In this document: piece by piece, positions 323 through 24,586 of the stretch
How the letters are laid out: every line of letters starts with the position of its first letter
Position numbering within the stretch: the stretch's first letter is position 1
NCBI GenBank assembly: GCA_018658305.1
Contig: JABHVM010000011.1
Location: 3,551-67,550 of the forward strand
Reading direction: 5' to 3'
Length of the DNA stretch: 64,000 nt
Origin: Thiotrichales bacterium
Lineage (GTDB): Bacteria; Pseudomonadota; Gammaproteobacteria; GCF-002020875
The notes under the pieces: generated by a model
Told to the model about the DNA's origin: nothing
What the model saw: the letters and a program-made list of their open reading frames with translations, nothing else
Databases searched by the model: none
Program-made: the position numbers and the translations under genes

Positions 323-333
323 GGGATAATTAG

Positions 334-360
334 AATAATTAGGGTTAGAGTGTGATTTAT
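334..360. repeat. 27-bp repeat family copy 1, preceded by a partial duplication of ATAATTAG
   Basis: AATAATTAGGGTTAGAGTGTGATTTAT, directly after the VOC gene stop. Confidence 0.7.
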
Positions 361-657
361 TTCCGCTAAAGTAATTGTTGGCTAAGTTGAATAAGGTATG
401 ATATTTTCCTACTGTTTACAGCTAATGTAGTAGCTTTAGGCAACTGTGAAGATAAGCATCTACTACACTGCTAACATTACTATTTGATCATTTGCTTTTA
501 GCTCTAATCAACAACCAATAATATAGCTGACTTGATTAGTGTAGAGTGCAAAAGTAAAGACCTGACCCTGTGGGTTAAAACTGTTCACTTAACTTCGCTT
601 GATATGGTATTATAATCTGTTATATATTATATTATGGATAGATGAAAAATAGATCTT

Positions 658-2181
658 ATGAATTCAACATCAATACTTAGTTTACTTATCTGGTTCCCCA
701 TCGTGGGCGGGCTGTTGACACTTATGATTGGCGACAAACGCGGCGTGTTTGGACGAGTTGCGGCACTCTTCTTCGCCATTGTTACTTTGATTATTTCGCT
801 CTCTCTATTGAGTGATTTTGATCGCTCTACCCATCTGATGCAGTTTGTGGAGCTCCTGCCGTGGATTGAGCCGTTCAGTATAAACTATCATCTTGGAGTT
901 GATGGTATCTCTATGCCATTTATTGTGTTGACTAGCTTTATTACTCTGATTGTGGTTATCGCAGGCTGGGAGGTGATTCAGGATCGCAATAGCCAATATA
1001 TGGCGGCGTTCTTGATAATGACAGGGTTGATGAATGGAGTCTTTGCGGCACTTGATGCGATTCTGTTTTACATTTTCTGGGAGGCGATGTTGATTCCGAT
1101 GTTTATCATTATCGGAGTTTGGGGTGGACCAAATCGAGTCTACGCTACTATAAAATTCTTTCTCTATACCTTCCTTGGTTCGGTCTTTATGTTGATATCG
1201 CTGCTCTGGTTGTATAGTGAGAGTGGTACATTCTCAATTCTTGCATACCATGATCTGCAGATAGGGATGACTGCGCAGCTCTTAATATTCTTCGCATTTC
1301 TCCTCGCCTTTGCGGTAAAGGTTCCAATGTGGCCAGTCCATACTTGGTTGCCAGATGCGCATGTGGAGGCTCCAACTGGAGGATCAGTGGTGCTTGCGGC
1401 TATTATGTTGAAGATGGGAGCTTACGGGTTTCTTCGCTTTAGTCTGCCGATTGTTCCAGATGCGAGTAGTGAACTAGATACATTTATGATTACGCTTTCG
1501 CTAATAGCGGTGGTCTATATAGGCTTTGTAGCGTTGGTGCAGCAAGATATGAAGAAGCTTATCGCCTACTCATCAATCTCACACATGGGTTTTGTTACTC
1601 TTGGATTCTTTATCCCATTTTTGATCTATAAAGATAGTGGAAGTATGGCTGGTGCTGCAATTGGTGTTGAGGGTGGGTTGGCGCAGATGATCTCGCATGG
1701 CTTTATCTCTGGAGCTATGTTCTTGAGTGTAGGGGTGCTCTATGATCGCCTCCACTCTCGTCAGATAAAAGATTATGGCGGTGTTGCTAAAACTATGCCG
1801 ATGTTTGCTGCCTTTATGCTCTTCTTCTCGATGGCGAATGCAGGGCTTCCTGGAACTTCTGGGTTTGTGGGAGAGTTTATGGTTATTCTGGGAGCGTTCC
1901 GTGCAGATTTCTGGATCGCTTTCCTCGCTGCGACTACGCTGATTGTTGGCGCTGCTTATACCCTCTGGATGTATAAGAGAGTGGTCTATGGTAAAGTGAC
2001 AAATGATGGAGTTGCTGCTCTTAAAGATATGAGCCGCAGAGAATTTTTAATGATGTCTATTTTGGCTCTGGCTATATTGGGGATGGGGCTATATCCTGCA
2101 CCAGTTGTTGATATTATGCACGCCTCAGTAGATCACCTATTAGAACAGATGATTACATCCAAGTGTGGGAGTTGTTTATGA
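658..2181 (+). CDS. nuoM: NADH-quinone oxidoreductase subunit M (antiporter-like membrane subunit)
   Basis: 507-aa polytopic membrane protein; the N-terminus and conserved core read as NuoM/ND4 (WLPDAHVEAPT, GGSVVLAAI). Confidence 0.9.
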   Translation: MNSTSILSLLIWFPIVGGLLTLMIGDKRGVFGRVAALFFAIVTLIISLSLLSDFDRSTHLMQFVELLPWIEPFSINYHLGVDGISMPFIVLTSFITLIVVIAGWEVIQDRNSQYMAAFLIMTGLMNGVFAALDAILFYIFWEAMLIPMFIIIGVWGGPNRVYATIKFFLYTFLGSVFMLISLLWLYSESGTFSILAYHDLQIGMTAQLLIFFAFLLAFAVKVPMWPVHTWLPDAHVEAPTGGSVVLAAIMLKMGAYGFLRFSLPIVPDASSELDTFMITLSLIAVVYIGFVALVQQDMKKLIAYSSISHMGFVTLGFFIPFLIYKDSGSMAGAAIGVEGGLAQMISHGFISGAMFLSVGVLYDRLHSRQIKDYGGVAKTMPMFAAFMLFFSMANAGLPGTSGFVGEFMVILGAFRADFWIAFLAATTLIVGAAYTLWMYKRVVYGKVTNDGVAALKDMSRREFLMMSILALAILGMGLYPAPVVDIMHASVDHLLEQMITSKCGSCL

Positions 2182-3659
2182 GTTTAAATAGTACAGACCT
2201 GTTTGCGGTAGCACCAGAAATAACTCTACTGACGATGGCTTGTGTAGTTCTTTTAGTCGATCTGTTTATCACAGATGAGGCTAGAGTAATTACCTGGCTT
2301 TTAACTTTAGGTTCACTTATATTAACAGCAATAGTGGTTGTAGTTGGGATGGGGGGCGAGGGGAGTGCAGGTTCACAGCTTCTGTTTGGAGGGTCACTAG
2401 TGCGAGATTCGATGGGGGATATACTAAAGATTTCAACTCTGCTGATTGGAGTTATGGTGTTCCTCTATTCAGGAAGTTATCAAAAAGAGCGCGATCTATA
2501 TCGTGGCGAGTATTTTGTATTGGGGCTGTTTGGAATATTGGGAATGATGATTTTAATCTCCTCCTACTCATTCCTTACTCTCTATCTTGGGTTAGAGCTG
2601 ATGTCACTTGCTATGTATGCGATGGTAGCTCTGCAGAGAGACTCTCTGCGTGCGTCTGAGGCTGCAATGAAGTACTTTGTGCTTGGAGCTCTCGCTTCAG
2701 GAATGCTCCTCTATGGAATCTCTATGCTCTATGGTGCAACTGAGTCGCTTAATTTGACAGAAGTTGCGGCTGTAGTGCAGCAGCAGGGTGGTGAGAAAGA
2801 TCTAAATTTAGTGCTTCTTTTTGGATTGGTCTTTGTGGTCTCTGGTATAGCATTCAAATTAGGAGCTGTACCGTTTCATATGTGGGTCCCAGATGTATAT
2901 CACGGTGCTCCCACTTCAGTTACACTCTATATTGGAAGTATTCCCAAAATTGCGGCATTTGCTTTAGTTATGCGTCTGTTGGTAGATGGGCTTGGAGAGA
3001 TGGTGGTTGATTGGCAGCAGATGTTGACTATATTGGCGCTGCTCTCTATGGCTATTGGTAATATAATTGCTATCGCTCAAACTAATCTAAAACGGATGTT
3101 GGCTTATTCAGGTATATCTCATATCGGATTCCTCCTTCTTGGTGTGTTAAGCGGAACAGAGGCAGGTTATGAGGCATCAATGTTCTATGTGATAACCTAT
3201 GCGTTTACTTCAGCTGGTGCTTTTGGAATGATTCTGTTGATGAGCAGTAAAGGGTTTGAGGCTGAGGAGATTAACGACTATAGAGGTTTGGCAAAACGGA
3301 GTCCATGGTTTGCGCTGATGATGATGATCTTGATGTTCTCAATGGCTGGAGTTCCTCCAACTGTTGGTTTCTATGCGAAACTTGCAGTGTTACAGCAGGT
3401 GGTTACAGCAGATATGGTTTGGCTAGCGGTTGCAGCAGTAGCGTTCTCAGTTATAGGAGCATTCTACTATCTTAGAGTGATAAAGGTTATCTACTTTGAT
3501 AAAGTGGATAGTGATGCTGAAATATCCTCACCACTAGCATCACCTAAATTTGAGTTAGAGCCTGTTGGTTTGACTCTATCGCTAAATGCACTAGTTGTAC
3601 TTGCTCTAGGACTCTTCCCTGGACAGTTGATGGTGTTGTGTCAAAGTGCTATAGGCTAG
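2178..3659 (+). CDS. nuoN: NADH-quinone oxidoreductase subunit N
   Basis: NuoN/ND2-like membrane protein. The likely start is the ATG at 2178, which overlaps the nuoM stop as ATGA; the ORF track opens earlier at 2163. Confidence 0.88.
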   Translation: MSLNSTDLFAVAPEITLLTMACVVLLVDLFITDEARVITWLLTLGSLILTAIVVVVGMGGEGSAGSQLLFGGSLVRDSMGDILKISTLLIGVMVFLYSGSYQKERDLYRGEYFVLGLFGILGMMILISSYSFLTLYLGLELMSLAMYAMVALQRDSLRASEAAMKYFVLGALASGMLLYGISMLYGATESLNLTEVAAVVQQQGGEKDLNLVLLFGLVFVVSGIAFKLGAVPFHMWVPDVYHGAPTSVTLYIGSIPKIAAFALVMRLLVDGLGEMVVDWQQMLTILALLSMAIGNIIAIAQTNLKRMLAYSGISHIGFLLLGVLSGTEAGYEASMFYVITYAFTSAGAFGMILLMSSKGFEAEEINDYRGLAKRSPWFALMMMILMFSMAGVPPTVGFYAKLAVLQQVVTADMVWLAVAAVAFSVIGAFYYLRVIKVIYFDKVDSDAEISSPLASPKFELEPVGLTLSLNALVVLALGLFPGQLMVLCQSAIG

Positions 3660-3979: not shown

Positions 3980-5404
3980 TTAACCAGATATTGAGTCTAA
4001 TACTCCGCTTATTTTAAGATCTATCTCCTGTTGCTCATCTCTGCTTTTTGAGCCGTCAACAATTCCAGCACCAGCATATATCGTTGCTCTATCCTGTTCA
4101 ATCATTGCGCAGCGTAGTAGTACATGGATTTCACCATCTCCTTTAGAGTCTATCCATCCAGCTCCGCCACAGTATGCTCCGCGATTACTATTATGCTCAT
4201 TTTCTAACCATTCAAAAGAGTCAGCTCTAGGAGTTCCACATATTGCAGGGCTCTGATGGAGAGTCTCTATTAATTTAAAAATTGAGACACTATCCTGAAG
4301 CTCGCCAGTAATTGAGGTGAGAAGGTGTTGAATATTCCCAAGTTTACGGATTTTAGGTTTACGCTCAGAGTTTTGATTACGACAGAGTGAGGCAAGAGAG
4401 TTTCTAACAGCATCAACTACTATTCTATGTTCAATGTTTAGCTTCTTACTCGTTAAAAGTTTACTCTCTAGCTCTGCCTCCTCTGCTAAAGATGAACCCC
4501 TTTGTACTGTTCCAGCAAGTGCATCAGAGTTGATAATGTTTCCTCTTTTAGAGAAGAGTTTTTCAGGAGGAGAGGCTATAAATGTATGGGTGGAGTTTGA
4601 GAATGCAAATTGAGCGCTCTCTGGACTACTACTCTCTAAATTTTTTAGAGTTCTTTCGCTAGAGATCTTGCTTGGAAAGATAAAGTTTTTCTGTTGTCCA
4701 ATAACTAGTTTTTGGATGAGTGATTTTTCTGTCTTATCTTCTCTATCTTCTCTATCTTTTGTAGTGCTTATCGCGCGCTCTATAAGTCTGATGTTCTCGC
4801 TACTGTTACTCTTAATTTCAGTAGCTCTGAACTCAACTTCCTTGGTATTATCTGTATCTACTTCTGGAGGTTGTTGTAGAAGCTGGAGGAGTGATTCCCA
4901 CTCCTCCATTATCTGACTGCTTGAGTTATCTGTTGTATGAGAGAATATTATAGACTGTATTCCATTTTCGTTAAGAAGCTGAAGTTTAGGGAGCTTTAAA
5001 ACTGTATTAGGAAAGTTGCTCCACTCCCCATTCATCGGATCTTTTTCTGAGAATGCATATTGGAAGAGAACTCTCGGAGTTACTGAGCTACTCTCTTCAC
5101 TATCAAGATGGTTAAATATATCCCACGACTCGATTAATTGATTAAAGTGTGATTCAGCTTCTCTAAATCTATCTGTGCCGCTTAACTCTACACTCCAGCA
5201 GTCTCCCAGCGCAAGCACTCTCACTTTGCCTTTAGGGCTTCTCCAGTAGATGCTGTCTCTATATGGTGAAGAGGTGCAGCAAGGGGCTGTGAATGGTCTT
5301 TCATTAAATGGAATAATTATACTAATAACAGTTTTAAGATTACTGTTGGCGCTGTATATCATCTCCAGCTCTTGTTGGAGCTGCTGAATTAATGATTTTC
5401 TCAT
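3980..5404 (-). CDS. menF: isochorismate synthase (menaquinone-specific, MenF-type)
   Basis: Chorismate-binding C-terminal signature (GAYCGGAGWID ... AGAGIV). It lies immediately downstream of menD and menB on the same strand. Confidence 0.75.
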   Translation of the reverse strand: MRKSLIQQLQQELEMIYSANSNLKTVISIIIPFNERPFTAPCCTSSPYRDSIYWRSPKGKVRVLALGDCWSVELSGTDRFREAESHFNQLIESWDIFNHLDSEESSSVTPRVLFQYAFSEKDPMNGEWSNFPNTVLKLPKLQLLNENGIQSIIFSHTTDNSSSQIMEEWESLLQLLQQPPEVDTDNTKEVEFRATEIKSNSSENIRLIERAISTTKDREDREDKTEKSLIQKLVIGQQKNFIFPSKISSERTLKNLESSSPESAQFAFSNSTHTFIASPPEKLFSKRGNIINSDALAGTVQRGSSLAEEAELESKLLTSKKLNIEHRIVVDAVRNSLASLCRNQNSERKPKIRKLGNIQHLLTSITGELQDSVSIFKLIETLHQSPAICGTPRADSFEWLENEHNSNRGAYCGGAGWIDSKGDGEIHVLLRCAMIEQDRATIYAGAGIVDGSKSRDEQQEIDLKISGVLDSISG

Positions 5405-5443
5405 AGGTAAATATTATATAAGTCTTTAGAATATTGTAATTGA

Positions 5444-6277
5444 TTATGATCTATTTCTGTAGCTACTAAAATCAGGTTGGCGCTTTTCATTAAAGGCGTT
5501 GCGTCCCTCTTGTGCCTCGTCTGACATATAGTAGAGTGAGGTCGCATTTCCAGCTAGCTCCTGAATTCCAGCAATACCATCACTCTCAGCGTTAAATCCA
5601 GCTTTAAGCAGGCGGAGAGCGGTAGGGCTATGTTGAAGCATCTCTAGGCACCACTTAACAGTCTCCTCCTCTAGCCTCTCTAATGGCACTATGCAGTTTA
5701 CGAGCCCCATCTGAAGCGCGTCAGAGGAGCTATATTGACGACATAGAAACCAGATCTCTTTTGCCTTTTTAATTCCGACAGCACGCGTGAGAAGAGCGAC
5801 CCCAAACCCAGCATCAAAGCTTCCAACTTTAGGACCAGTCTGTCCGAAGATGGAATTTTCCGATGCAATAGAGAGATCACAAATAAGGTGGAGTACATGT
5901 CCACCGCCAATAGCGTAACCATTGACCATAGCTACTACTGGTTTAGGCAGGGTTCTAATCTGACGCTGCAGATCTAGTACATTAAGGTGTTCACCACCAT
6001 GTTCATCTTTATAGCCACTATCTCCCCTTATTTTTTGGTCTCCTCCAGAACAGAAGGCTATATCTCCAGCTCCTGTTAGGATGATAGCTCCTACCTCTTG
6101 ATCTAAATGGGCGTGGTGAAATGCATCTATTAACTCTATGACGGTTTCTGGTCTAAACGCATTACGCACTTCTGGACGATTGATGGTTATCTTAGCTATC
6201 CCCTGTTGTGGGGCGCCAGATTTTTCGTAGATAATATCTTTATAGTTGAGAGATGGCTCTCTGTTCCAGTTAGTCAA
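5444..6277 (-). CDS. menB: 1,4-dihydroxy-2-naphthoyl-CoA synthase
   Basis: Crotonase fold with the MenB-type motifs GGDQK and [12 protein letters not shown]. Confidence 0.88.
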
Positions 6278-8034
6278 AGTAGTGAGTCCCAGTATTGTTG
6301 TCGTAGTTTTTTGCTAAAGAGAGGATTAATAGTTAATTCTATCAGCTTGACCGAGTTCTGTTTAATGAGAGTTGGAAGTAATTTATCAAACTCAGTTTGC
6401 GTCTCTATTTTTTGGTACTCTATATTGTAGAGTGCAGCGGCTTTTTTAAAATCTAAATTAGTTGGAGTTAGCCAAAGTTCCTTAAACTCAGGTAGCTTGG
6501 CAGGAGGGAGCTGGCTAAAAATATTGCCACCACCATTATTAAGAATAATGATAGTTGTATTTCCCTTAATCTGTTGTGCAATGTAGAGTGCGTTGAGATT
6601 GTGAAAGATGGTTATGTCACCAAGTAGGGCAACCAGAGGAGTATCTGAATCAATAACTGAACGGATTCCACATAGAGTAGCGAGGTTACCATCAATACCA
6701 CTAGCGCCACGGTTGGCAAAAAGTTTTAGTGGTTTGGAGCGCTTTCCGAGCCAGCAATCTATATCTCGTATAGCCATAGAGTTTGCGCTGAACAGGACTC
6801 CATCTGCAGGGATTTCGCTCTTTATACTTTGTAAAATAGCCTGCTCACTTAATAGATCTAAATCTTTATTACTACTGCGTTTACCTATTGACCACGAATT
6901 TGCTTTAGCATTTAACTTTATTAAATTATCAGTTAAGAGCTGTTGTGTAGAGTTTACAGCTGGAGAGTGTTGGTTCTCTTTGAGCTCTGAATATAGTTCA
7001 CTACAGAATAGTGCTGGTTCTATCTCTATCCGTTTAGTAGATAGTGAGAGTGGATCGCTCCAGAGCTGTCTATGCTGTATGGTTATAAACTTTTTTGGTG
7101 GATGGTTATGGAGGTATCTATTAAGTGAACTAGATAGGGGGAATTTACCAAACTGGATGATCCACTCTATATGCACCCCTATCTGGATCTCTTCACTTAC
7201 TGCATCATAGTTTGTTATGAGTAGGTCATATTGTTGCGCTCTCCAGCGTAGATTGGAGAGTGAGTCAGCTAAGATCGGCACATTGAGCTGTTTCGATATT
7301 TTTTGAAGTTGTAGGGGGAATTTACTATTGTAAATCGCCTCTCCACAGATTATCAAGCCAGCACCAATTGATACTATTTCAGCACTCTCCTTAATTTGAT
7401 AAGTTGGAATTGGCAGCTCATTAAGTGCTATATTCTCCTGAATTGGTTTAGCTGAAATTTCTGGCGGTAGAGTGGATGGAAGGAGTGGCTCACGAAATGG
7501 GATATTAAGGTGGAGTGGTCCAGGTATTATGTTTTGGTTAGAGTTGTTGCTGCCTAGTTTGCCAATAAGAGTATCTACTAACTGTTGAATATATTCATCG
7601 CTATTTTTTATCTCATCAGGTGGAAGAATACTTTTGTTGAAGCGTACTTCAGCTCCAAAAATATTGTGTTGTTGAATAGTCTGATTCGCACCGCAGTTAT
7701 GGAGTTCTGGAGGGCGATCTGCGGAAAGTAGAAGTAGAGGCGTAGCTGAGTGGTTTGCCTCAACTACAGCAGGAAGCCAGTTAGCAACCGCACTTCCTGA
7801 AGTGCAGATTAGAGCCGTTGCTATCTTATCTACTTTACTTTGACCAAGTGCGAAAAATGCAGCATCGCGTTCATCAATAATTAACCAGTGTTGAGCATCT
7901 CTATTCCGAGATACTGCAAGAGTGAGAGGAGTGGAGCGAGAGCCTGGAGATATTACAAAGCGAGTAATTCCAGAACTTACTAACGATGCAATCAGCTGTT
8001 GAGACCATTGATAGTTGGCTAACCCTATATCCAT
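6274..8034 (-). CDS. menD: SEPHCHC synthase (2-succinyl-5-enolpyruvyl-6-hydroxy-3-cyclohexene-1-carboxylate synthase)
   Basis: 586-aa ThDP-enzyme architecture with a MenD-like N-terminus ([15 protein letters not shown]). It overlaps menB by 4 nt. Confidence 0.82.
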
Positions 8035-8039
8035 AAGTA

Positions 8040-8447
8040 CTAAAAGTTTTCGGGGCTTATTTTATGAAGCAGCTCTATAATCTCAGCTGGAAGAGGTATT
8101 GGTTCGTGGTTAATCGCAACATGGACGGTTCTTACCTGAGCTGCGACTGTCTCTCTATTATCATTAACTATAAATTTGGTAAGTAGAGTAAATGAACTGT
8201 TACCAATCATATCCACTTGAACAGATATCTCTAAAGAATCACCATGTCGAATAGGAAGTTTGTAGTCAGCTTCAGCATGGATGATGGGAAGAGAGTAACT
8301 TTTGTTCTCAATTATTTTAGTTATGGGAGTTCCATAAGATTCCATTATCTCTTCATAGCAGCTATGGGCAAGAGTGAAGAGGTTTGCAAAAAAAAGCAGT
8401 CCGGCAGAATCTACTTCATGGAGTTGAATTTTTCTCTTAATAATCAT
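8040..8447 (-). CDS. hotdog-fold acyl-CoA thioesterase, possibly the DHNA-CoA hydrolase of the men pathway
   Basis: 135-aa 4HBT-type sequence located between menC and menD. Confidence 0.55.
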   Translation of the reverse strand: MIIKRKIQLHEVDSAGLLFFANLFTLAHSCYEEIMESYGTPITKIIENKSYSLPIIHAEADYKLPIRHGDSLEISVQVDMIGNSSFTLLTKFIVNDNRETVAAQVRTVHVAINHEPIPLPAEIIELLHKISPENF

Positions 8448-8456
8448 CGTGCTCTT

Positions 8457-9422
8457 TTACTCCTCATTTAACCATTTTCCAGTATCAAGACCGTGTGCTA
8501 ACTGCTGCTCTGGATCTATAGCTAGGGCACACTGTATTGCAGAGTCTACTCCAATATGGCTCTCTAGAGTAGATGTTATTACAACCTCTACTCTATGTTG
8601 TTTGAACTGACGTGCTATTTTAACTGTGGTTTGAGGTCCACCGATAAGAGTAGGTTTGAGAACTACTCTACGCAGTTTATTGTTATTTAGTAGAGAGTGA
8701 AGCTCAAAGTGAGATATAGATTCATCTAGGGCGATAGGGAAGCTGCTTAGGTGTTGAAGTCTATTAATCTGCTCTAGAGTCGGATCTACTATTGGCTCCT
8801 CTAGTGATTCAACTCTATCTACTCCAGATAGTTCATTAAGAGCTCTGATAAATATTAGTGCCTGCTCCATACTCCATGCTTGGTTGGCATCTAATCTAAC
8901 CCTGTAGTGAGAGGGCAGGGTGTTAATAAGATCTTTTAGGAGCTCTATCTCAGATTCAACACTCTCGATTCCAATTTTTAACTTCACTATGGAGTTGCCA
9001 CTATTGTCAATTGTTGGTTGTTGTAGAGTGCCAGCTGCTTGGTTTACTCTGAGTGGTCTCACACTTTTTTGAATCTGGAGAGGGTTCTCTCCCAGCTTGC
9101 TCTGCAGGTCAATAATGGCAGATTCAACGCCACAACAAGCTGCAGGCATAGTGGTACGGTAATCTGCTAAGATCTCTAATAGTTCATTTAAAGTATATTT
9201 TTCTGTAATAGATACAAACTTTTCTAGTAGTGTTCTGCACTGCTCTATAGTCTCTGTTCCTAATATTGGAAGAGGTGCAGCATCTCCCTCTCCCTCTACA
9301 CTATTCTTACCATCTTCACTTATAGATACCCAGAAACCATCTCTAGTGTTGAGTTCTCCCCGGCTAGTTATCCATGGGTGTTTAAGTTCGATCTGGTAAG
9401 GGGTGATTTTAAGTTTATACAC
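8457..9422 (-). CDS. menC: o-succinylbenzoate synthase (enolase superfamily)
   Basis: 321 aa; the enolase-superfamily metal-ligand region RLDANQAW; men operon context. Confidence 0.7.
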   Translation of the reverse strand: MYKLKITPYQIELKHPWITSRGELNTRDGFWVSISEDGKNSVEGEGDAAPLPILGTETIEQCRTLLEKFVSITEKYTLNELLEILADYRTTMPAACCGVESAIIDLQSKLGENPLQIQKSVRPLRVNQAAGTLQQPTIDNSGNSIVKLKIGIESVESEIELLKDLINTLPSHYRVRLDANQAWSMEQALIFIRALNELSGVDRVESLEEPIVDPTLEQINRLQHLSSFPIALDESISHFELHSLLNNNKLRRVVLKPTLIGGPQTTVKIARQFKQHRVEVVITSTLESHIGVDSAIQCALAIDPEQQLAHGLDTGKWLNEE

Positions 9423-9427
9423 CAGTG

Positions 9428-10087
9428 TTACTTATCATCTAGGAGTGATATATATGCAAGTAAGTTGTTAAGATCAGTACTGCTATACCCTATAAATATA
9501 GAGTCACTACTTGCCTCTTCATCATGAACTCGCTCTCCAGACTGGTATGCGTTGATCTGTTTGAGAAGATATTTACTATATTGTCCCGCTAGAAATGGGA
9601 TATCTTTTTTCTCTTTACCCTCTCCATTTTGTCCGTGACAGCTTTTACATTCGTTATTATAGATGAGTTTGCCACCAGCATAATCACCGTCTATACGAGC
9701 AATATTTAGTAGTCTCTCGCTAAGGAGGAGTCTCTCATAAGCATTAAAATTATCTTTATCTATTATTGGTGGAAGTTTAGAGTAGAGTTTAATTCTGTTT
9801 ATATATGCAGAGACATTCAGAAGGTCCTCTTCTGGTAGTTCGCGCTCTTTAGTGTATGGAACCATAGGGTGGTTAAGCCGTTCATGGCTTTTGAAGAGGC
9901 GGAGCTCTTTCTCTAGATATTTGATAGGAAGACCAGCTAAGCGAGGATACTCACCATCTTTTCCTCCCTCGGCATACTCACCATGACAGCCAGCACATAC
10001 TTCATTTATCTCTTCGCCAATATCTAAATCAATGGCAACTGAGTTGTTTGTTAAGAGTAGAAGTGTGATTGCAATATATTTTTTCAC
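9428..10087 (-). CDS. periplasmic diheme c-type cytochrome at the distal end of the nos cluster
   Basis: Two CXXCH motifs (CAGCH, CKSCH) and a signal peptide. The likely GTG start at 10087 overlaps the nosY stop as TAGTG; the ORF track shows a longer upstream extension. Confidence 0.65.
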   Translation of the reverse strand: MKKYIAITLLLLTNNSVAIDLDIGEEINEVCAGCHGEYAEGGKDGEYPRLAGLPIKYLEKELRLFKSHERLNHPMVPYTKERELPEEDLLNVSAYINRIKLYSKLPPIIDKDNFNAYERLLLSERLLNIARIDGDYAGGKLIYNNECKSCHGQNGEGKEKKDIPFLAGQYSKYLLKQINAYQSGERVHDEEASSDSIFIGYSSTDLNNLLAYISLLDDK

Positions 10088-10914
10088 TATATCTGGTCGC
10101 CCCTTTTGAAAATAAAGTATCCGAGAGTTGCGGTTAAGCTTCCTAATACGATTGGGTAGACGATAGCCCAAATTAGATATCCAACCTCTCCAAAATTATC
10201 TAGAATTAGATATGCAGAGGGACCAAGTAGTACTAGTTGAGGATCAAATAGAAGCATTGAAGCGGTACGAAAAACCTGTAGTGGATTGCTTAGTGCAATT
10301 GCAACAACTGTATCCACTGGAGCTTGTTGCTGAATCATAACTCCTAGTAGAATTAGGTCTAAGAGTAGGAGTAGGGTGAGCCAGACCATAAAGGCTACAC
10401 CTTGAGCAATATCTGCTGAACGGGCTATGGTTGAGATTAGCATTCCTATTCCTAAAAAACACCAGGAGAGTGAGAATAGAAAAGCGGTGTAGAAGAGGAA
10501 GAGTCTCCAAGGTATCTCAATTCCCTCAAATATTCCCCAGATAATGGAGGCGGCCATCGCCATAAATACAGGTAAGAATACTACAATAAAGCGTCCAAAT
10601 ATCTTGCCCCAGAACCAAGATGAGAGAGCAACAGGGAGTGACAGAAGGTATTCAAAGACACCTGCTTCACGATCGCCAGCAACAGATCGTACAGTAGTTA
10701 TGAGGATGAAGATCGGAAGAATCGCCATTGAGAGTTGAATGTAGGTTATGAGAAGACGAGATAGTCCGACAAAACCCATAACCCTTGACTCTGTTAGACC
10801 AAAGGTAAAGAGAAGGGCTATAATTCCCCCAAATATTAGCGAGTATACTAGGAACCATCTGCTTCGCAGTGATTCAGATATATCTGCTTTAGCTGTCATC
10901 CAGGTGTGTTTCAT
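10087..10914 (-). CDS. nosY: ABC-2 type permease NosY
   Basis: 275-aa six-TM permease that is 4-nt coupled to nosL and nosF. Confidence 0.72.
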   Translation of the reverse strand: MKHTWMTAKADISESLRSRWFLVYSLIFGGIIALLFTFGLTESRVMGFVGLSRLLITYIQLSMAILPIFILITTVRSVAGDREAGVFEYLLSLPVALSSWFWGKIFGRFIVVFLPVFMAMAASIIWGIFEGIEIPWRLFLFYTAFLFSLSWCFLGIGMLISTIARSADIAQGVAFMVWLTLLLLLDLILLGVMIQQQAPVDTVVAIALSNPLQVFRTASMLLFDPQLVLLGPSAYLILDNFGEVGYLIWAIVYPIVLGSLTATLGYFIFKRGDQI

Positions 10915-11429
10915 TCTGCTGCCTCACTATTACGATGATTGAGGCGCGCTTTAACGGAAGCGTTGAACTCCTCTTCTTGTTTAAATACAGCTTCTCTCAT
11001 CTGAGTAAAGTTATATATGGTCTGTTCACTACTATAGGGTGAACTGTCATCCATACTATTGATGGCACTAAATCCATAATTCATTGGGGTGTGAGTTATA
11101 CGAATATATTTGGCACTACGAGCTTCAACCCACTTATTGTCCCCCTTAGTGCTATCGAAATCATTAACCCAAATTTCAGTTGCAGGGTCACTCTTCCAGC
11201 TCTGCGTCTCTAACCAGAGTACAGCACACCCTATATCATCAAAGGTATATGCTTGATGGCGTTCACCACCTCTTATCTGCGCCCCATGTCTGCGATCACT
11301 AAGAGCCATTACGCAGCGGCTGCAATTGTCTCTATCCCAGGTTATCTCAACTGGTCCTGTTGCAGGATCCCCTCCACAGCCCAGTAATAGTAGAGTTAAG
11401 GTGGTGAGGATAGTTAAATTTTTTATCAT
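10911..11429 (-). CDS. nosL: copper-binding lipoprotein NosL
   Basis: Lipobox LLLGCGG; about 170 aa; position between nosF and nosY. Confidence 0.68.
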   Translation of the reverse strand: MIKNLTILTTLTLLLLGCGGDPATGPVEITWDRDNCSRCVMALSDRRHGAQIRGGERHQAYTFDDIGCAVLWLETQSWKSDPATEIWVNDFDSTKGDNKWVEARSAKYIRITHTPMNYGFSAINSMDDSSPYSSEQTIYNFTQMREAVFKQEEEFNASVKARLNHRNSEAAE

Positions 11430-12088
11430 AATTTATCTGTTATATATTCAGGGGTGATAATTTTATCTGCAACTACTTCACCACGATCTAGTTCTACTAC
11501 TCGATTAACTAAGTTTGCAACCTCATCAACACGATGGCTAGAGATTAACATTGCACAACTATTAGCTCTCTCTTGGAGTAGTGCAATAACAGTTTTGCGT
11601 GCCTCTGGGTCAAGGTTGGCAGTTGGTTCATCCATTATAAGTAGAGCTGTAGGACGACCTAGTGCGATAGATATTAAGAGTTTCTGTTTTTGCCCCCCAG
11701 ATAGTTTCTCAAAAGGGTGACGCTGGAGTAACTTTATATCTAATCCTAGCTGTTCTGCTACTGCTACCATATCAGCAGGGCTGCTCCCACATACGCTTGC
11801 TGCAAAGTTAATAAGTTGATCTACAGGCATTTTGAGTGGAGGAGGAAGCTGAGGTACGAATCCTATCTGTGCTAACACCTCTCTACGGTTGTGACGAGGG
11901 TCTAGTCCATTCACAGTAATAGATCCTTGAAAAGTATACTCTCCAAGCAGGCAGCGGATTAAGGTAGTTTTGCCAGCACCATTAGATCCCAGTAGTGCAA
12001 TGCGCTCACCAGTCGTAATCTCAAGGTTAAGAGATTTGAGTACCTGGTGGCGTTTGAAGCTTTTACTAACTGCAGAGAGTTTTATCAC
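11426..12088 (-). CDS. nosF: ABC transporter ATP-binding protein NosF
   Basis: Walker A GSNGAGKT, ABC signature LSGGQKQ, Walker B LIMDEP. Confidence 0.8.
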   Translation of the reverse strand: MIKLSAVSKSFKRHQVLKSLNLEITTGERIALLGSNGAGKTTLIRCLLGEYTFQGSITVNGLDPRHNRREVLAQIGFVPQLPPPLKMPVDQLINFAASVCGSSPADMVAVAEQLGLDIKLLQRHPFEKLSGGQKQKLLISIALGRPTALLIMDEPTANLDPEARKTVIALLQERANSCAMLISSHRVDEVANLVNRVVELDRGEVVADKIITPEYITDKL

Positions 12089-13128
12089 TTGCTCTCTTCC
12101 TCTGTTTTCTTCTCTTCTATGGCTGTCTCTATACCCTCTTTTTCTTCTCCACTAGGTACCTTACTCAACCCTTTGAAATAGAAATTTAGCGAATCAGTTG
12201 GGCAGACATCTATACACATTCCACAACGAGTGCAGTCTGGCCCGAGCTGAACATTAAAGTCAGGAGAGCGACCTTTGATCGTCCACTCCAGCACATGGGG
12301 TACGAGACAGACCTTACGGCAATCCCCCTCATGGTGACAGTTGACCATATTGTAGTTTACTTTCATCGGAGATATTAACCCTACAAATCCATAAGTGAGA
12401 CCTATAGGGCACGCATATTTACACCAAGCTCTGCGTGAATAGAATACTTCAACTGTTAGCAGAAAGAGGACCCAGAGTAACGCAAAGGTCGGACCATAAA
12501 TTAAGGCACGACTTATGATTCCAGTAGGGGAGATTGCTTCATAGATGGTGTATCCAGTGCCGACAGTTAGGACTATAAATATAATATAGAGGTATACTCT
12601 AGCTTTACGACTAAATAGTCTGTTTTTTATTATCTTCTTCTCAACTAACTTAATATGAATCATTTCTCCAATTTCAGAGAGAAGATGATATGGGCACGCC
12701 CATGAGCAGAAGGTGCGACCTCCAAGTAAAATCCATAATATAAAAATAGTTATGAAGCCAATCAACAGGTTGATTAAAACTGTTTTATAGGCAAGCATAA
12801 CTTGTAGTGCTGAGTTAAGGTCAGCCATATGAAAGCCGATAAAACGGGAGGCAGAGAGTGAGCCCTCTAGAATTTGAATATCTAGTGAGTAGGAGAATAC
12901 GAATAGAAGATTAACAAATAAGATAGTTGCCCAGCGCCGTTTGCGCCATTTTTTATCGTGAGTTTCACGGAATAGTTCATGCTCTTTACGAGCCTTTACT
13001 TTATCGATCTCGCCACTATCCTTTTTACGCTGATGAACTGTTTGGGTTTCAGGAGATATTTTAGCTGGTGGCGTCTTCTGAGGTCTTTTACCCAACATAA
13101 CATTGAGACAGTACTTTCCTATTTTCAT
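12085..13128 (-). CDS. nosH: membrane-bound polyferredoxin NosH (NapH-like)
   Basis: TM helices plus two C-x-x-x-CP and two 4Fe-4S (CxxCxxCxxxCP) motifs; clade-II nos context. Confidence 0.68.
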   Translation of the reverse strand: MKIGKYCLNVMLGKRPQKTPPAKISPETQTVHQRKKDSGEIDKVKARKEHELFRETHDKKWRKRRWATILFVNLLFVFSYSLDIQILEGSLSASRFIGFHMADLNSALQVMLAYKTVLINLLIGFITIFILWILLGGRTFCSWACPYHLLSEIGEMIHIKLVEKKIIKNRLFSRKARVYLYIIFIVLTVGTGYTIYEAISPTGIISRALIYGPTFALLWVLFLLTVEVFYSRRAWCKYACPIGLTYGFVGLISPMKVNYNMVNCHHEGDCRKVCLVPHVLEWTIKGRSPDFNVQLGPDCTRCGMCIDVCPTDSLNFYFKGLSKVPSGEEKEGIETAIEEKKTEEESK

Positions 13129-13967
13129 GCTGTGCGCTCCTTAATAACAATAGATGGTGCAGCTGTAGGGCAGACCATTTCACATACTCCACAACCTACA
13201 CAGCCCTCTAGTATAGTCGGACGGTATTGCAGTCCGCCATCATCTTTTTTCTCTACGGAGAGCATAATTGCTCTCTCTGGTGGACACTGATTTTTATCTC
13301 CAGATGGGGGAGCTCCAGCATCACATTGGTTGGCTCTAATCTCAATTGGACAGAGGCGTACGCAGAGATCGCAGAGTGGGATATCGAACTCTTGTTCATT
13401 CAGTTTTTGTGGTTCCCAGCGATCAATATCTTCAAAACGGAGCACTCCTTGATACTCTATGCCGCGAGTAACTCCCTTAAATCCTTTTTTCTGCATGGCT
13501 AAACAGCTGTCAGGTAGGCGCAGTTCAGCAACCCCCATTCTAGTTTCATGGGAGTAGTTAATTTCGTGAGTTAGAGCTCCAGTTGGACAGGCAAGAACAC
13601 ACTGGAGACCATCGCAAGAGAAGTCACACGCTTGATTGCGTGCATCAATATAGGCTGCTCCTTGCCCCTGGCCATCCATAATGTCGGCAAGGAATATGGC
13701 CTCTACAGGACATACCTGTACACACTGTCCACATTTAATGCAGGATGCAAGATACTCTTTCTCATCTAGCGCTCCAGGTGGGCGGAGGCGTGGAGCAGCA
13801 TTGGTTAAGGTAGGAATTAAGTTTAGCAGGGAAAATCCAGTAACTCCAGCTACCATAGCAGCACTGCGTAGAAACTCTCTTCGTTCACGCTCTTTTCTAG
13901 TTAGGCGCGGTTTTGCGCTACTCTTCTCTGTTGGAGTTGATCTATCTTTTGGTTCTGATTTACTCAT
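13125..13967 (-). CDS. nosG: periplasmic Tat-exported 4Fe-4S ferredoxin NosG (NapG-like)
   Basis: Twin-arginine signal RREFLRSAAMVAGV and multiple CxxCxxCxxxCP clusters. Confidence 0.7.
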   Translation of the reverse strand: MSKSEPKDRSTPTEKSSAKPRLTRKERERREFLRSAAMVAGVTGFSLLNLIPTLTNAAPRLRPPGALDEKEYLASCIKCGQCVQVCPVEAIFLADIMDGQGQGAAYIDARNQACDFSCDGLQCVLACPTGALTHEINYSHETRMGVAELRLPDSCLAMQKKGFKGVTRGIEYQGVLRFEDIDRWEPQKLNEQEFDIPLCDLCVRLCPIEIRANQCDAGAPPSGDKNQCPPERAIMLSVEKKDDGGLQYRPTILEGCVGCGVCEMVCPTAAPSIVIKERTA

Positions 13968-14005
13968 CCTTATGCCCTTAATTTACAGTTCTAATTGTAT
14001 TGTTT

Positions 14006-15460
14006 TTATTGCTCAGTTTCTATATGTATACTCTGTTGCAGTGCTTTGAGGGATGCTCCCCACTCCCTTACTGGCGCACTATCCTCACCATTATCTACTT
14101 CTTCGTCATCTTCATTTTTATCTTGTTTTTGGTCTATTATCTCATCTATCTTGACATCAATTAACTCATCACTCAATAGCGGCTGTTCATCTCTAAGTAG
14201 CAAGATTGGCTCTGAGAATGGGGCGAGCCGCTCTAGAAAATCTAAAGAAGCGAGTAGGGGAGTACCTATGAAAAATTTAGCTTCTGGACGATCCATCCAG
14301 ATTCTATCTGCATAAGAGTAGAGTTCATATGGTTGATCTCCAATTCCATCTTGGTTGTTATCAAAACCTTGATAGTCATCCCATAGATTATGTTCCCATA
14401 CATTTTTAGTCGCACCACCATTACCATCCACAGATATCTGAGTGATATTATCTTTGAAAATATTGTTACGGGCAATATTTCCCCACCAAGGGGTGTGAAA
14501 TAGAATGCCAATTCCATTGAAGGCGATTGTATTTCCCTCCATTATATTGACTGTATCAGGTTGGTAGGGGGAGACATCACTATAGATTCCAGTAGCACAG
14601 TAGAGAATTTGATTATTTATAATCTTTACATCACTGGTCTCCTTCATCCCGATACCCATTCCAGTAGTACCGAGAGAGCGGGTAATCTTGTTGTTGATAA
14701 GGGTTGCTCCATCACTGTACATCAAGAATATGCCAACTGAGTTGTTGTTATATTCATTACCCTCTATTAAGTTTCCTTGTGAGTACATAAAATGGAGAGC
14801 GTAGCGTCCCCCAGATGAACGGTTGTGAGAGATTGTATTGTTGCTAGAGTACCAGACAACCATATCACGACTTCCGATAATAGTGTTATGGGTGATGGTG
14901 TTATCAAAACTATACCAAAGTCGAATAGAGTCACCACGCATTCCAAGATCAACACTATTTTTAGAGCTAATATGATTGTTGCTTATAATATTATTTTTAG
15001 CCTCACCAAGGTCTATTCCAAATAGAGTCTCATCAATGATGTTATTCTTGATAACATTAAAATTACCATGTACTTGAATGCCTGAATCAATATCATTATG
15101 TGATTCACCGGAGTTGGTGAGACGAATATTTTTTATAGTAACTCCATCACTATGTAGGTAGATAACACTCCCTTTACCTCCAGCATCAATAGTAACTTCA
15201 CCTCGTCCATCTATAGTGATAGCTTTATCTATCTGAATTGATCCAGTATAGGTTCCAGCAGGAGGAGAGAGGGTTCCTCCTTGAGGGGTTGCATCTATTA
15301 ACTGCTGAAGTGATTCAGTGAAATTATCTGTAACACTGCTTGCCACTGCGTAATTTACAGTTAAGAGTAGAAGAGCTGTCGCGGATAGTATTCTACACAA
15401 CTTCTTACGCGAAATATAGTCGTAAGCAGTCCTGCGTAATAAGCTGTAGTACAGCACCAT
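14006..15460 (-). CDS. nosD: periplasmic right-handed beta-helix copper-processing protein NosD
   Basis: 484 aa with a signal peptide and repetitive parallel beta-helix (NosD/CASH) sequence periodicity. Confidence 0.78.
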   Translation of the reverse strand: MVLYYSLLRRTAYDYISRKKLCRILSATALLLLTVNYAVASSVTDNFTESLQQLIDATPQGGTLSPPAGTYTGSIQIDKAITIDGRGEVTIDAGGKGSVIYLHSDGVTIKNIRLTNSGESHNDIDSGIQVHGNFNVIKNNIIDETLFGIDLGEAKNNIISNNHISSKNSVDLGMRGDSIRLWYSFDNTITHNTIIGSRDMVVWYSSNNTISHNRSSGGRYALHFMYSQGNLIEGNEYNNNSVGIFLMYSDGATLINNKITRSLGTTGMGIGMKETSDVKIINNQILYCATGIYSDVSPYQPDTVNIMEGNTIAFNGIGILFHTPWWGNIARNNIFKDNITQISVDGNGGATKNVWEHNLWDDYQGFDNNQDGIGDQPYELYSYADRIWMDRPEAKFFIGTPLLASLDFLERLAPFSEPILLLRDEQPLLSDELIDVKIDEIIDQKQDKNEDDEEVDNGEDSAPVREWGASLKALQQSIHIETEQ

Positions 15461-15480
15461 CTGTTTTTATCTGAAATGAG

Positions 15481-16677
15481 TTATCTATTAGATTTCAAAT
15501 GAATCAGAGCAGCCACTGCCAACACTACTGAATTTAGCATAATCAGCCCGAAACCATAGTTAGGATAAGAGTAGGTGGCAAACTGTGCAACCTTTCCAAC
15601 CCCAAATACCGTTGGCATAAATGGTTTAACTGTAAATGCTCCCATCTCGCTTAGGTGATGTCCAAACCACCAGAGCCAACCAGCATAATCTAGAATAAAG
15701 AATATAGGAAGAGCCATCGGTACTAGAATAAGAACCCAGTTGAAAGCATTCTCCATTTTCCAGAGTCCGACAATGATAAGTAGCATCGCTCCAAGTAAGC
15801 CGATAAAGACTATATCTGTAATCTGCATCATTAGAGCGCTGCGCTCTACATCTGTCATTCCTACCTTATTAGACATAACCTCACATCGCTGCATAAACTC
15901 TTGTTGTTGTTGCTCTGCAGTCATTGTTGGGTCGCTTTTGATTTTGTCGTAAAGCTGGTGGAAGGTTTCCATTATAGATGAGTTAGCTCCAGCATTTGCT
16001 AGTAGATCGTTGAGCTCTTCAAATGGACGATCTTGAGTTGCATAGAGATCCACATAGGTCATCTGGTTTGCATATCTATCACATTCAACTGCAATAGTTG
16101 GAAAGTAACGAGCAAGGGCCTCTTCGTAACTTGCCTTAATTGCATCAACTCCACTCCAACCTTCAATCTCATTTGGAGTAAGTTCCATAGTACTCATTAA
16201 GTCATCACGGTATGGTGCAGATTGCTGTTTTAAGCCATCTTCACTATAGAGGGTTGTATATGCCCAGCCCGCTATCGCAATTGAACCAATGCCCATAAAT
16301 GCCATCTTCTGTTTGCGATTGGGTAGAGCAAACGCTATTATCATTAATCCCAATAGTACAAATACAAATGGTGATACTGCTCGTTCAACTGGTGCGCCAG
16401 CTGCGATTGGGTACATTCCAACATAGTGGTTGATTGCATCCATCTCATGTTTACAGTTTAGAGCCTCCTCTTCATACTTCTCTTCAGACTCAACTTTTTT
16501 ACATCCATTATCAACTTTATTGACATGGAAGTGAATCCTGATTCCTTGTGGAAAAGATGCTTCAGGATATTGTGGAGCTTTTAGTGAAACCCACCAGATT
16601 GGACTGTAGAATATTGCGATAAGTAGTCCAATTGAGACTAAGGAGAATGTGCCGATGACTAGGTTTTTATTTTGCAT
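15481..16677 (-). CDS. nosB: integral membrane protein NosB (clade-II nos cluster protein)
   Basis: 398-aa polytopic membrane protein in the position that nosB occupies downstream of Sec-type nosZ. Confidence 0.55.
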   Translation of the reverse strand: MQNKNLVIGTFSLVSIGLLIAIFYSPIWWVSLKAPQYPEASFPQGIRIHFHVNKVDNGCKKVESEEKYEEEALNCKHEMDAINHYVGMYPIAAGAPVERAVSPFVFVLLGLMIIAFALPNRKQKMAFMGIGSIAIAGWAYTTLYSEDGLKQQSAPYRDDLMSTMELTPNEIEGWSGVDAIKASYEEALARYFPTIAVECDRYANQMTYVDLYATQDRPFEELNDLLANAGANSSIMETFHQLYDKIKSDPTMTAEQQQQEFMQRCEVMSNKVGMTDVERSALMMQITDIVFIGLLGAMLLIIVGLWKMENAFNWVLILVPMALPIFFILDYAGWLWWFGHHLSEMGAFTVKPFMPTVFGVGKVAQFATYSYPNYGFGLIMLNSVVLAVAALIHLKSNR

Positions 16678-16838
16678 ATTTGTCTGTATTTAATTTGTTT
16701 GTTTTGTCTGTCTGTATCTATTTTTTCTGTATTACTTTTTCTGTTTTCTAAGCGTAAAGTTTTCAGTCATCAGGTGGCAGTTAGAGCATTCGTAGATTTA
16801 ACTTTGAACTGCCACTTGATAACTTTTAACTTCTTCTA

Positions 16839-17567
16839 TTAATCGTAATCTGGATTAATCCATCCTACAGGAGCCACATCAGATTTAGGAACTGGAATAC
16901 GAGATACGAAATCAATAACTGCTTTCATATCATCATCATTGAATCCAGCAATCTGTTTTACCATATCTGGATTTGCATTACGGCGTTTGCCATCGCGAAT
17001 CCACTCAAATTGACGCAACATATATGCATAGTGCTGTCCCTGAATTTTTGGATAGAACTTCTCTTGGTCACCTTCACCATTCTCCATATGACACTGAACA
17101 CAGTTATCTTTATAGAGCTTTTGTCCAAGTGCTAAATTGTTACCTTCACCTTTTCCGTTGTTAGGATTCATAGGTAATTTTGCGATATAGTCAGTAACAT
17201 CAGCAATTGCTTGCTCATCACCAATTGACTCAGGTAGCGCAAAAGGGTACATGGTTGGGTTATCACGGTTAAGAGCACGAATATCAGCAAGCTGTTTTAT
17301 CAACACATTTTTATGTTGTCCAGCAAGTTGTGGAAAAGTTCCATTGTCCATTCCCCAGCCCTCAAGCAGATGGCAAGCTGAACAAACTTCGTAGACTTCA
17401 ATCCCATTTTCACGATTAGGAGCTAGTTTCATAGCTACGCTCTGCTCGCCTTCCCCTGTATTCCAATCTTTTACATCTTTAACTTGACCGCCAGCTATGG
17501 TTGTTGCACTAAAGCTGACTCCAATAAAGGTCAGTACAGTGGCAATGGTGGTTAATTTCTTCATCAA
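16839..17567 (-). CDS. periplasmic diheme cytochrome c (NosC-type electron donor)
   Basis: Signal peptide plus CSACH and CVQCH motifs. Confidence 0.7.
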   Translation of the reverse strand: MMKKLTTIATVLTFIGVSFSATTIAGGQVKDVKDWNTGEGEQSVAMKLAPNRENGIEVYEVCSACHLLEGWGMDNGTFPQLAGQHKNVLIKQLADIRALNRDNPTMYPFALPESIGDEQAIADVTDYIAKLPMNPNNGKGEGNNLALGQKLYKDNCVQCHMENGEGDQEKFYPKIQGQHYAYMLRQFEWIRDGKRRNANPDMVKQIAGFNDDDMKAVIDFVSRIPVPKSDVAPVGWINPDYD

Positions 17568-17641
17568 TTTCTCCAGTTTTTTAATGTTGGTACCGATTAC
17601 AGTACTATTTAAACATATTAGTTAAGATTAGCATAGATTAT

Positions 17642-17962: not shown

Positions 17963-18039
17963 AAATTGTATTCCTAATGTTATAAAAAATGTAAGGTTAT
18001 TAAAGAGAATAAGTCATTCATTATATTCCCTAGCTTTAA

Positions 18040-18072
18040 AAAGGGGAAGAGTAAATTCTCTTCCCCCCTTCA
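18040..18072 (-). terminator. intrinsic terminator-like hairpin 25 nt after the nosZ stop
   Basis: On the minus strand, GGGGAAGAG-AATTTA-CTCTTCCCC is followed by TTTTT. Confidence 0.6.
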
Positions 18073-18095
18073 AATCGTAAATTAGCTAATTAAAA

Positions 18096-24568: not shown

Positions 24569-24586
24569 TCATCTAAGGATAACAGT

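Follow-up and report, generated by a model that had tools for sequence, protein, structure and literature searches.

Tyrosine transposases associated with repetitive extragenic palindromes (REPs), or RAYTs, are single-domain HUH/Y1 enzymes of the IS200 superfamily. REPs themselves are 20-40-nt repeats outside genes with many copies per genome, each copy being an imperfect palindrome that can fold as a stem-loop. To our knowledge, IS200/IS605 elements are the only Y1 insertion sequences; they carry a distinct subterminal hairpin at each end and insert 3' of a fixed tetra- or pentanucleotide. In the REP/REPIN-RAYT systems of Pseudomonas and Enterobacteria, short extragenic repeats are scattered singly or in inverted doublets, inverted copies flank the Y1/HUH gene, copies lie at gene ends, and a single lineage can hold several repeat families with their own RAYTs (PMC3116915, PMC5581495, PMC3479197). 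A GTAG/CGTC tag is typical of the REP superfamilies (PMC3733652). RAYTs of groups 2 and 3 are single-copy and mainly vertically inherited, and group 1 is distributed across many classes of bacteria, with occasional plasmid location, some duplicates, and flanking 16-mers that are only modestly abundant, at about 12 per replicon (PMC5581495). Here we analyzed a 64,000-nt stretch of DNA (hereafter the window; contig JABHVM010000011.1, positions 3,551 to 67,550) from an uncultured Thiotrichales bacterium, and in it a 28-nt repeat that occurs three times. This 28-mer is most probably a REP-type dispersed repeat of a RAYT-like (HUH/Y1, IS200 superfamily) system, a reading that follows from a Y1 gene repeatedly bounded by inverted copies and from REPIN-like doublets. 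It is a new family of a known, REP/REPIN-like kind with some atypical traits, and not a new system.

A preliminary description of the window had placed one 27-mer at 334-360, 50457-50483 and 53157-53183. The degenerate 27-mer of the motif AATAATTAGGGTYAGAGTGTNATTTAT(T), searched with up to three mismatches, matches the window at exactly these three positions. All three copies are on the plus strand and fit the pattern with no mismatches, and none of 100 dinucleotide-preserving shuffles gave a match. The conserved unit is 28 nt, AATAATTAGGGTYAGAGTGTNATTTATT (334-361, 50457-50484 and 53157-53184), with A instead of T as the last base in copy 3. When the flanks are aligned, copies 2 and 3, and each of them and copy 1, are alike only within the edges of the unit. 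A fourth copy lies outside the window at L069:8880, 797 nt upstream of copy 1, and all four are intergenic or overlap a stop codon only. The partial duplications reported earlier before two of the copies are also present, as truncated 5' copies that form a "staircase":

326-333, + strand: truncated 5' copy ATAATTAG (staircase), directly before copy 1
334-361, + strand: repeat copy 1, AATAATTAGGGTTAGAGTGTGATTTATT, 12 nt past the stop codon of a VOC gene
50431-50456, + strand: two truncated 5' copies, AATATTTAGGGTCAGG (50431-50446) and AATAATTAGG (50447-50456), before copy 2
50457-50484, + strand: repeat copy 2, AATAATTAGGGTCAGAGTGTAATTTATT, 69 nt upstream of an AAA-ATPase_like/PDDEXK_9 open reading frame (ORF)
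53157-53184, + strand: repeat copy 3, AATAATTAGGGTCAGAGTGTTATTTATA, 71 nt upstream of a U32 peptidase ORF

Scans with the exact pattern, over one genome per species and then over metagenomes (38 further loci), gave 44 distinct sites after duplicates were merged. The unit has sharp edges, since the six bases on each side are unconserved across these sites, and the flanks are unrelated on both sides. Hosts in the genome scan were free-living SUP05, several Bathymodiolus thiotrophic symbionts, Ca. Thiodubiliella and an unclassified gammaproteobacterial metagenome-assembled genome, and the repeat is further present in a closed Methylophagaceae chromosome and a closed Nitrospinales chromosome. Contigs resembling the window organism also carry the 28-mer, and about eight more sites are on contigs of similar G+C. 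One candidate in Psychrobacter (L017) was set aside as a chance match, as it has no AATAA prefix and lies inside an ORF. No match came from a viral collection.

The only gene repeatedly bounded by inverted copies encodes a Y1_Tnp (RAYT-like) transposase. In these loci, the repeat is located 27-62 nt upstream of the transposase start, and the inverted copy is at or just past the stop codon, often overlapping it. Searches seeded with gene remnants returned only fragments of at most 177 aa, some from sources named Ca. Thioglobus, SUP05 symbiont or Methyloprofundus, and the intact gene was reached only through the genomic context of one fragment. This gene, on an 841-kb contig (L062), encodes a 233-aa Y1_Tnp protein, with AATAATTAGGGTCAGAGTAATATTAATA 44 nt before the ATG and an inverted variant over the stop; another copy of the gene, 1.9 kb away, has the same repeat upstream and is frameshifted. 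The L062 protein matches Pfam Y1_Tnp and scores 72 bits against the NCBIfam model REP_Tyr_transpos (cut-off 80), with no match to the IS200 model, and its sequence shows an HUH motif in the form HVH as well as a segment YRYIELNPVRA. Genes of 76% identity lie between AATAATTGGGGTCAGAGTAAAATTAATT variants (L064, L058-61, L074), and the genes with close repeat variants (L062, L064, L058-61, L074 and L079) are intact or frameshifted. Plasmid pl1 of the cultured betaproteobacterium Iodobacter fluviatilis carries a 63%-identical "transposase" between 26-nt inverted repeats AATAACTGGGGTCAGAGCAAATTAAA, with the homologue at two places in the Iodobacter record. Together, the repeats and genes of these loci indicate that across beta- and gammaproteobacteria this gene clade is accompanied by the repeat class AATAAYTRGGGTCAGAG, whose exact 28-mer form is that of the SUP05 group and the window organism.

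Gene remnants are found beside the 28-mer itself. In Ca. Thiodubiliella (L019), the repeat is followed after 40 nt by an ATG and a 62-codon ORF (MARLKRITPADIPQHIIQRGN...LALGNEVFIKEIEVLNNARVSSRKAGRPKKNVE, with the C-terminus GRPKKNVE) whose TAA is inside an inverted exact 28-mer; this 280-nt unit is what is left of a Y1 transposase gene after an internal deletion. The same structure is cut to 15 codons in L037/L046, where the repeat, 36 nt, MARLKRITPSEVPQQ and the inverted repeat total 137 nt. Five loci (L015, L075-L078) hold a C-terminal transposase remnant ending in an exact 28-mer, and in the Nitrospinales chromosome (L008) the repeat is followed after 45 nt by a truncated transposase N-terminus. 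A tblastn search with the intact L062 protein confirmed the remnants in L008, L019 and L015 (E values of 2e-11, 5e-11 and 7e-10). The earlier view that the motif is something other than ordinary intergenic sequence is therefore borne out: it is a mobile-element-derived repeat, and the 28-mer or its variants bound the Y1 gene in several genomes.

Doublets and a sister repeat complete the resemblance to RAYT systems. In L077/L078, a variant repeat, a 22-nt spacer and an inverted variant form 78-nt doublets at no fewer than four sites, and as single-stranded DNA the doublet folds into a long hairpin (dG -14.1 kcal/mol, z -6.1). These doublets match the REPIN layout of Bertels and Rainey (PMC3116915), whereas the window holds only a long-spacer mosaic. 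The sister repeat AATAATGGGGACAGGCTACTTTT flanks, in inverted orientation, an intact 177-aa Y1_Tnp gene in Ca. Thiodubiliella (L010), which scores 79.6 bits with the RAYT model. Copies of it at L010:4560-5320, 3195 and 7041 and at L016:2336 have the same 5' staircase, and at two loci it abuts the 28-mer. Sister repeat families with separate enzymes thus coexist in a single lineage, as in Pseudomonas.

The 28-mer shares with the REP/REPIN-RAYT systems a dispersed short extragenic repeat in singlets and inverted doublets, inverted copies flanking a Y1/HUH gene (in the related loci, none of them inside the window), copies at gene ends, and more than one repeat family in a lineage, here the 28-mer and AATAATGGGGACAGGCTACTTTT in Ca. 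Thiodubiliella. Its location is REP-typical: intergenic, often touching stop codons, and near both housekeeping (fklB, L050) and accessory genes. It differs in having an AT-rich unit with no hairpin, no GTAG/CGTC tag and a pile-up of truncated 5' copies, in that most of the genes are decayed, and in near-identical repeats across orders and phyla. The protein is just under the NCBI RAYT cut-off. By description, the group 1 RAYTs (PMC5581495) fit the low copy density, the plasmid homologue and the wide host range of the present system. Group 1 is also a better match than groups 2 and 3 for the pseudogenes, the L062 duplicate, the plasmid copies and the occurrence across phyla, for which an insertion sequence (IS)-like lifestyle would account as well. 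As in IS200/IS605, the enzyme belongs to the Pfam Y1_Tnp superfamily and probably cuts and joins single strands; those elements have subterminal hairpins and no terminal inverted repeats, while the gene units here have 26-28-nt inverted repeats at both ends. Other architectures (dif, loxP, attC, Tn7 end, Tn3 end and CRISPR repeat) did not match. In the window, neither Rfam at gathering thresholds nor a search for tRNA/tmRNA gave a hit, a full-text literature search with the repeat sequence string returned no paper, and none of the matches listed combined RAYT or REPIN with SUP05, Bathymodiolus or Thioglobus.

Several observations weigh against a REP-type repeat of a RAYT-like system. Folded as single-stranded DNA, the single 28-mer (the three window copies and four variants) reaches only 0 to -1 kcal/mol, no better than shuffles. 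The short inverted repeat noted previously, AATAATTA...TAATTTATT, is present as letters but makes no stable hairpin (dG about 0). Neither strand contains a GTAG or CGTC tag. Conservation within the motif is partly by construction, because the sites were gathered with the exact pattern. Wherever the exact 28-mer flanks a gene, that gene is decayed, and the intact genes carry variants. A RAYT gene was seen neither in about 75 kb around the window, including 10 kb on its left side, nor in further contigs that resemble the window organism or are similar in composition; a tblastn search with the L062 protein likewise had no match in the window. With phmmer, the transposase has no similarity to any solved structure, the E. 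coli RAYT included. Finally, the many pseudogenes, the duplicated L062 gene, the two plasmid places and the cross-phylum occurrence are more IS-like than RAYTs of groups 2 and 3.

Among the arrangements of the repeat, singlets are the most frequent. Direct pairs enclose one or two genes, as with fklB in L050, brnTA in L024 and window copies 2 and 3; back-to-back pairs occur in L013 and L014; and face-to-face inverted pairs have 80 nt to 3.7 kb between copies. A truncated 5' copy (ATAATTAG...) is located within 45 nt upstream at 10 of the 44 sites and downstream at three. In L021:8519-12279 (also L031 and L056), 3.76 kb between face-to-face inverted 28-mers contains one 1073-aa, defence-like gene (PLDc_2, ResIII/Helicase_C and DUF3427) together with module A of the mosaic described below. 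This segment is a candidate repeat-bounded cargo unit, for which no empty site was found. In the Methylophagaceae chromosome (L006:4793-6040), a 28-mer is followed after 10 nt by an IS30-family element that has inverted repeats of its own, and a solo IS30-end fragment interrupts an earlier repeat copy, which suggests that IS30 inserted repeatedly into or beside this repeat cluster.

An apparent switch of gene order at copy 2 (L004) was rejected as an assembly chimera of a SUP05 genome and the window organism, because its left 3338 nt are 100% identical to SUP05 scaffold L009, the arrangement of which five assemblies bear out. Over the right part, identity with the window is 99.9%, and the join (3309-3340) is in the shared 32 nt. 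For this reason, metagenome cases with the same right flank and different left flanks are weak evidence, and the three brnTA left flanks (L024, L030, L036) were left unused. More generally, a shared 28-32 nt can fuse contigs of different organisms, giving chimeric assemblies and mis-binned contigs in metagenomics. The window organism, an uncultured gammaproteobacterium, is found in more than 470 assembly blocks together with SUP05 and is abundant in the marine assemblies from which L001-L003 and L069-L073 come. Its nearest relatives have only about 70% protein identity and a different gene order.

In the window, copy 1 heads a discrete mosaic of approximately 245 nt beside the VOC gene:

2-322, + strand: 3' portion of a Glyoxalase/VOC gene, which as a whole lies between two direct mosaic copies
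326-577, + strand: mosaic element of ~245 nt, composed of repeat copy 1, module A (~407-505) and module B (~517-577)

The mosaic is 92.5% identical over 255 nt to a locus in another context in six assemblies (including L057/L047/L045/L043/L026), downstream of an rlmD-like gene and beside a PIN gene, and homology ends at both edges. A third copy at L069:8865-9087, upstream of the VOC gene, brings the mosaic to at least three copies and brackets the VOC gene with two direct ones. Module B holds degenerate inverted repeat-like segments, CTGACTTGATTA and CTGACCC. The modules also occur separately, module A by itself in L021 and module B by itself right after the repeat in L039/L044/L040. The element resembles a mosaic of the type of the bacterial interspersed mosaic elements (BIMEs) or a long-spacer doublet. 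As in the BIMEs of E. coli, a repeat unit, conserved modules and a degenerate inverted unit are combined and are rearranged elsewhere, although the sequences are unrelated and the spacers longer. Folding of the mosaic is no better than that of shuffles (z -0.56), with no covariation and no structured RNA or DNA signal; by blastx, modules A and B are not transposase-gene remnants, and a plasmid collection had no DNA match to the mosaic.

The setting of copy 1 is as first described: the VOC gene ends at 322, and nuoM/nuoN-like genes at 658-3659 have kdsB, lpxK, exbBD and comEC upstream and no nuoA-L. Past this nuoM/nuoN-like pair, which stands without other nuo genes, the stretch 3980-20390 contains genes for menaquinone biosynthesis and a cluster for nitrous-oxide reductase with nos_propeller, NosD, 4Fe-4S proteins and cytochromes c. 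Just left of the window, L069:8622-8788 holds a tRNA-Ser(GGA) and then an inverted module B, followed by the upstream mosaic copy. Contig L071 departs from L069 exactly at the module B edge and has small accessory ORFs there instead, which may reflect a strain-variable island by the tRNA or a further assembly artefact.

Copies 2 and 3 bracket the remaining junctions:

50368-50438, + strand: D1a, 71 nt, duplicated at 52282-52352 with 89% identity; homology stops at the start of the repeat staircase
50554-52209, + strand: AAA-ATPase_like and PDDEXK_9 gene, between copies 2 and 3 (Pfam E values of 4e-63 and 3e-20)
52282-52352, + strand: D1b, the second 71-nt copy, upstream of the cheA fragment, with a promoter-like site TTGACG-18-TACGAT
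52596-53165, + strand: CheA fragment, consisting of the dimerisation domain and first half of the ATPase domain, with its stop inside copy 3

The nuclease/ATPase-like gene and truncated cheA reported earlier between these copies were both recovered, as was the cheA stop supplied by copy 3. The CheA fragment contains H-kinase_dim, but of the 111 HATPase_c profile positions it covers only 4-50, and it ends with the TAG at 53163-53165. There is no Hpt domain upstream and no rest of cheA downstream, and the fragment is cut at both ends, because translation further upstream gives only stop codons. Copy 3 starts within three bases of where the frame ceases to resemble CheA. The top strand of the repeat has stops in all three frames (TAG at 7-9, TAA at 3-5, and TAA or TGA at 20-22 if N is A or G). 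This accounts for ORFs ending so often inside the repeat, and a gene broken at its 5' edge is closed at once, as with the cheA fragment.

Copy 2 is a homology breakpoint: D1a is followed by TTTA and then by GGGTCAGG and the staircase (junction TTTA/GGGTCAGG), and the first 8 nt of 50431-50456 are the end of the D1 segment. The D1b sequence runs on into the promoter-like site before the cheA fragment. The D1a/D1b direct repeat brackets the staircase and the AAA-ATPase_like/PDDEXK_9 gene. The 71-nt segment was found nowhere else among the fetched loci. An insertion with a long duplication and an imported paralogous promoter region are both candidate origins. The junctions at the three window copies are real. 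As apparent rearrangement points, copies 2 and 3 hold up, one at the end of the 71-nt homology and the other at the cheA break, but copy 1 is instead the first base of the discrete ~245-nt repeated element. The repeat may be a cause of the truncation or duplication rather than a mere marker.

Other features surround these copies. Between D1b and the cheA fragment, about 15 CA dinucleotides (52518-52548), 47 nt upstream of the fragment's ATG, form a possible slippage tract. The U32 peptidase gene downstream of copy 3 (53256-55283) encodes 660-675 aa compared with homologues of about 760 aa, approximately 100 aa shorter. BLASTP aligns about 53% of the protein at 60-72% identity, with a divergent C-terminal half; the best non-self homologue has 72% identity over about half its length and different neighbours, and the mnmA-DUF6172-U32-glyQS neighbourhood of relatives is absent from the window. 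Two paralogous FIST and histidine-kinase gene pairs at 47733-50330 and 57402-60109 are inverted relative to each other (I1 and I3; 71-76% complementary) and flank a 7-kb stretch in which copies 2 and 3 lie together with the U32 gene and an Fe-ADH gene; they are a possible inversion substrate. The window also contains a second repeat family (24521-24571, 34668-34758 and 52039-52078), a 51-nt hairpin-bearing segment CAACTGCC-ATTTA-GGCAGTTG inverted 10 kb apart with 90% complementarity. Adjoining the 51-nt segment, the 40 nt at 34668-34707 are 85% complementary to a stretch within the ATPase/nuclease gene.

The full unit comprises the repeat upstream of the transposase start and the inverted repeat at or past the stop, and gene-less copies are scattered between genes as singlets, REPIN-like inverted doublets or parts of longer mosaics. 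By analogy with studied RAYTs and IS200/IS605 TnpA, the enzyme would cut and rejoin one DNA strand at the repeats, probably at replication forks, and may thereby spread or rearrange repeats in trans. The window contains non-autonomous copies only, three singlets of which the first heads the ~245-nt mosaic, and no transposase. Cutting between TTA and GGG, or within AATAATTAG, would account for the staircase and for the TTTA/GGGTCAGG junction.

The main rival explanation takes the 28-mer as the terminal inverted repeat of an IS of about 0.9 kb that moves autonomously and horizontally, with one Y1 gene and 26-28-bp ends. The window copies would then be solo ends or deletion derivatives from its decay instead of a REP population kept up by a domesticated RAYT. 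It overlaps with a RAYT-like system, and the difference is one of degree. The deletion series from the full gene through 280 nt (L019) to 137 nt (L037/L046) would fit such decay, as would homology searches that gave almost only fragments, the two gene copies 1.9 kb apart in L062, the plasmid-borne homologue at two places in its record, and the near-identical repeats in Thioglobaceae, Methylophagaceae and Nitrospinales. However, gene-less copies, in the form of sharp-edged singlets, direct pairs and mosaics, far outnumber gene-bearing ones, which simple IS decay does not predict. No target-site duplication was seen, IS200/IS605 elements lack terminal inverted repeats, and the IS200 model misses the L062 protein. 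We consider this explanation unlikely. The preliminary description's solo terminal repeat of a miniature inverted-repeat transposable element (MITE) or IS nevertheless came close in its IS half, since inverted repeats do bound a Y1 (HUH) gene. The half that implies a DDE-type transposon or MITE failed, with no DDE transposase having these ends. Inverted pairs with short interiors (L037/L046, L040, L019) and the IS30-family element adjoining the L006 copy would be consistent with it, but the short interiors are Y1 gene remnants, the inverted repeats of the IS30 element (GGTGAATTCA..CAAGTGCAAC) are unrelated to the 28-mer, and the inverted pairs in L021, L019, L037/L046 and L079 show no consistent target-site duplication. 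A solo DDE-type end is thus highly implausible.

The preliminary description had also proposed a site for a site-specific recombinase. As the crossover site of a Xer-like, integron-like or other enzyme, the 28-mer would bound cassettes such as toxin-antitoxin, ATPase/nuclease, VOC and fklB genes. A 28-bp unit would suit this role, as would direct pairs around one or two genes (copies 2 and 3, brnTA in L024, fklB in L050 and VOC through the mosaic), the inverted pair around the helicase gene in L021, and neighbours that are often accessory genes. Xer sites consist of two inverted arms around a 6-8-bp spacer, and attC sites of R''/R' boxes with a conserved GTT. The arms of the 28-mer, AATAATTAGGG and TGTAATTTATT, are complementary only in the outer AATAA and not palindromic like Xer, lox or att core sites, and its majority variant reads GTC, not GTT, which breaks the attC triplet. 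No integrase or recombinase was found near any copy or in the annotated parts of the window (the nosZ cluster, ccm, men genes, two-component systems and a copper ATPase). Housekeeping genes are bracketed too, and the sole regularly bounded gene encodes an HUH transposase. A recombinase site is therefore very improbable, and the proposal was not sustained. Nor is a regulatory site, be it an operator, terminator or RNA motif, at all probable. The copies are intergenic and near gene ends, and known E. coli REPs can affect mRNA stability, but the copies have no fixed position relative to promoters, occur in both orientations, and are near-perfectly identical across phyla, unlike operators. The absence of an Rfam match, the single unit without a hairpin and a 245-nt mosaic that folds like shuffles also argue against it.

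With the 28-mer read as a REP-type repeat of a RAYT-like system, the repeat-bounded segments could be cargo moved between genomes by the enzyme, a proposal that we regard as rather doubtful. The candidates are the ATPase/nuclease gene with the cheA fragment, the VOC gene between mosaics, brnTA (L024) and the PLD-helicase-DUF3427 gene (L021). If true, cargo movement would account for the near identity of the 28-mer among Thioglobaceae, Methylophagaceae, Nitrospinales and the window organism, all of which share the same waters. Defence and toxin-antitoxin genes would then be transferred horizontally by a RAYT-type system, which would not be a vertically inherited resident of the genome. The assignment itself names the repeat and points to a likely enzyme for it; the repeat marks sites where genes are truncated or duplicated, both in SUP05/Bathymodiolus symbionts and in a marine gammaproteobacterium that is abundant and uncultured. 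Its departures from the known systems, namely the missing hairpin, the 5' pile-up, the decayed genes and the cross-phylum occurrence, make it a useful test case of whether some RAYT systems still move horizontally.

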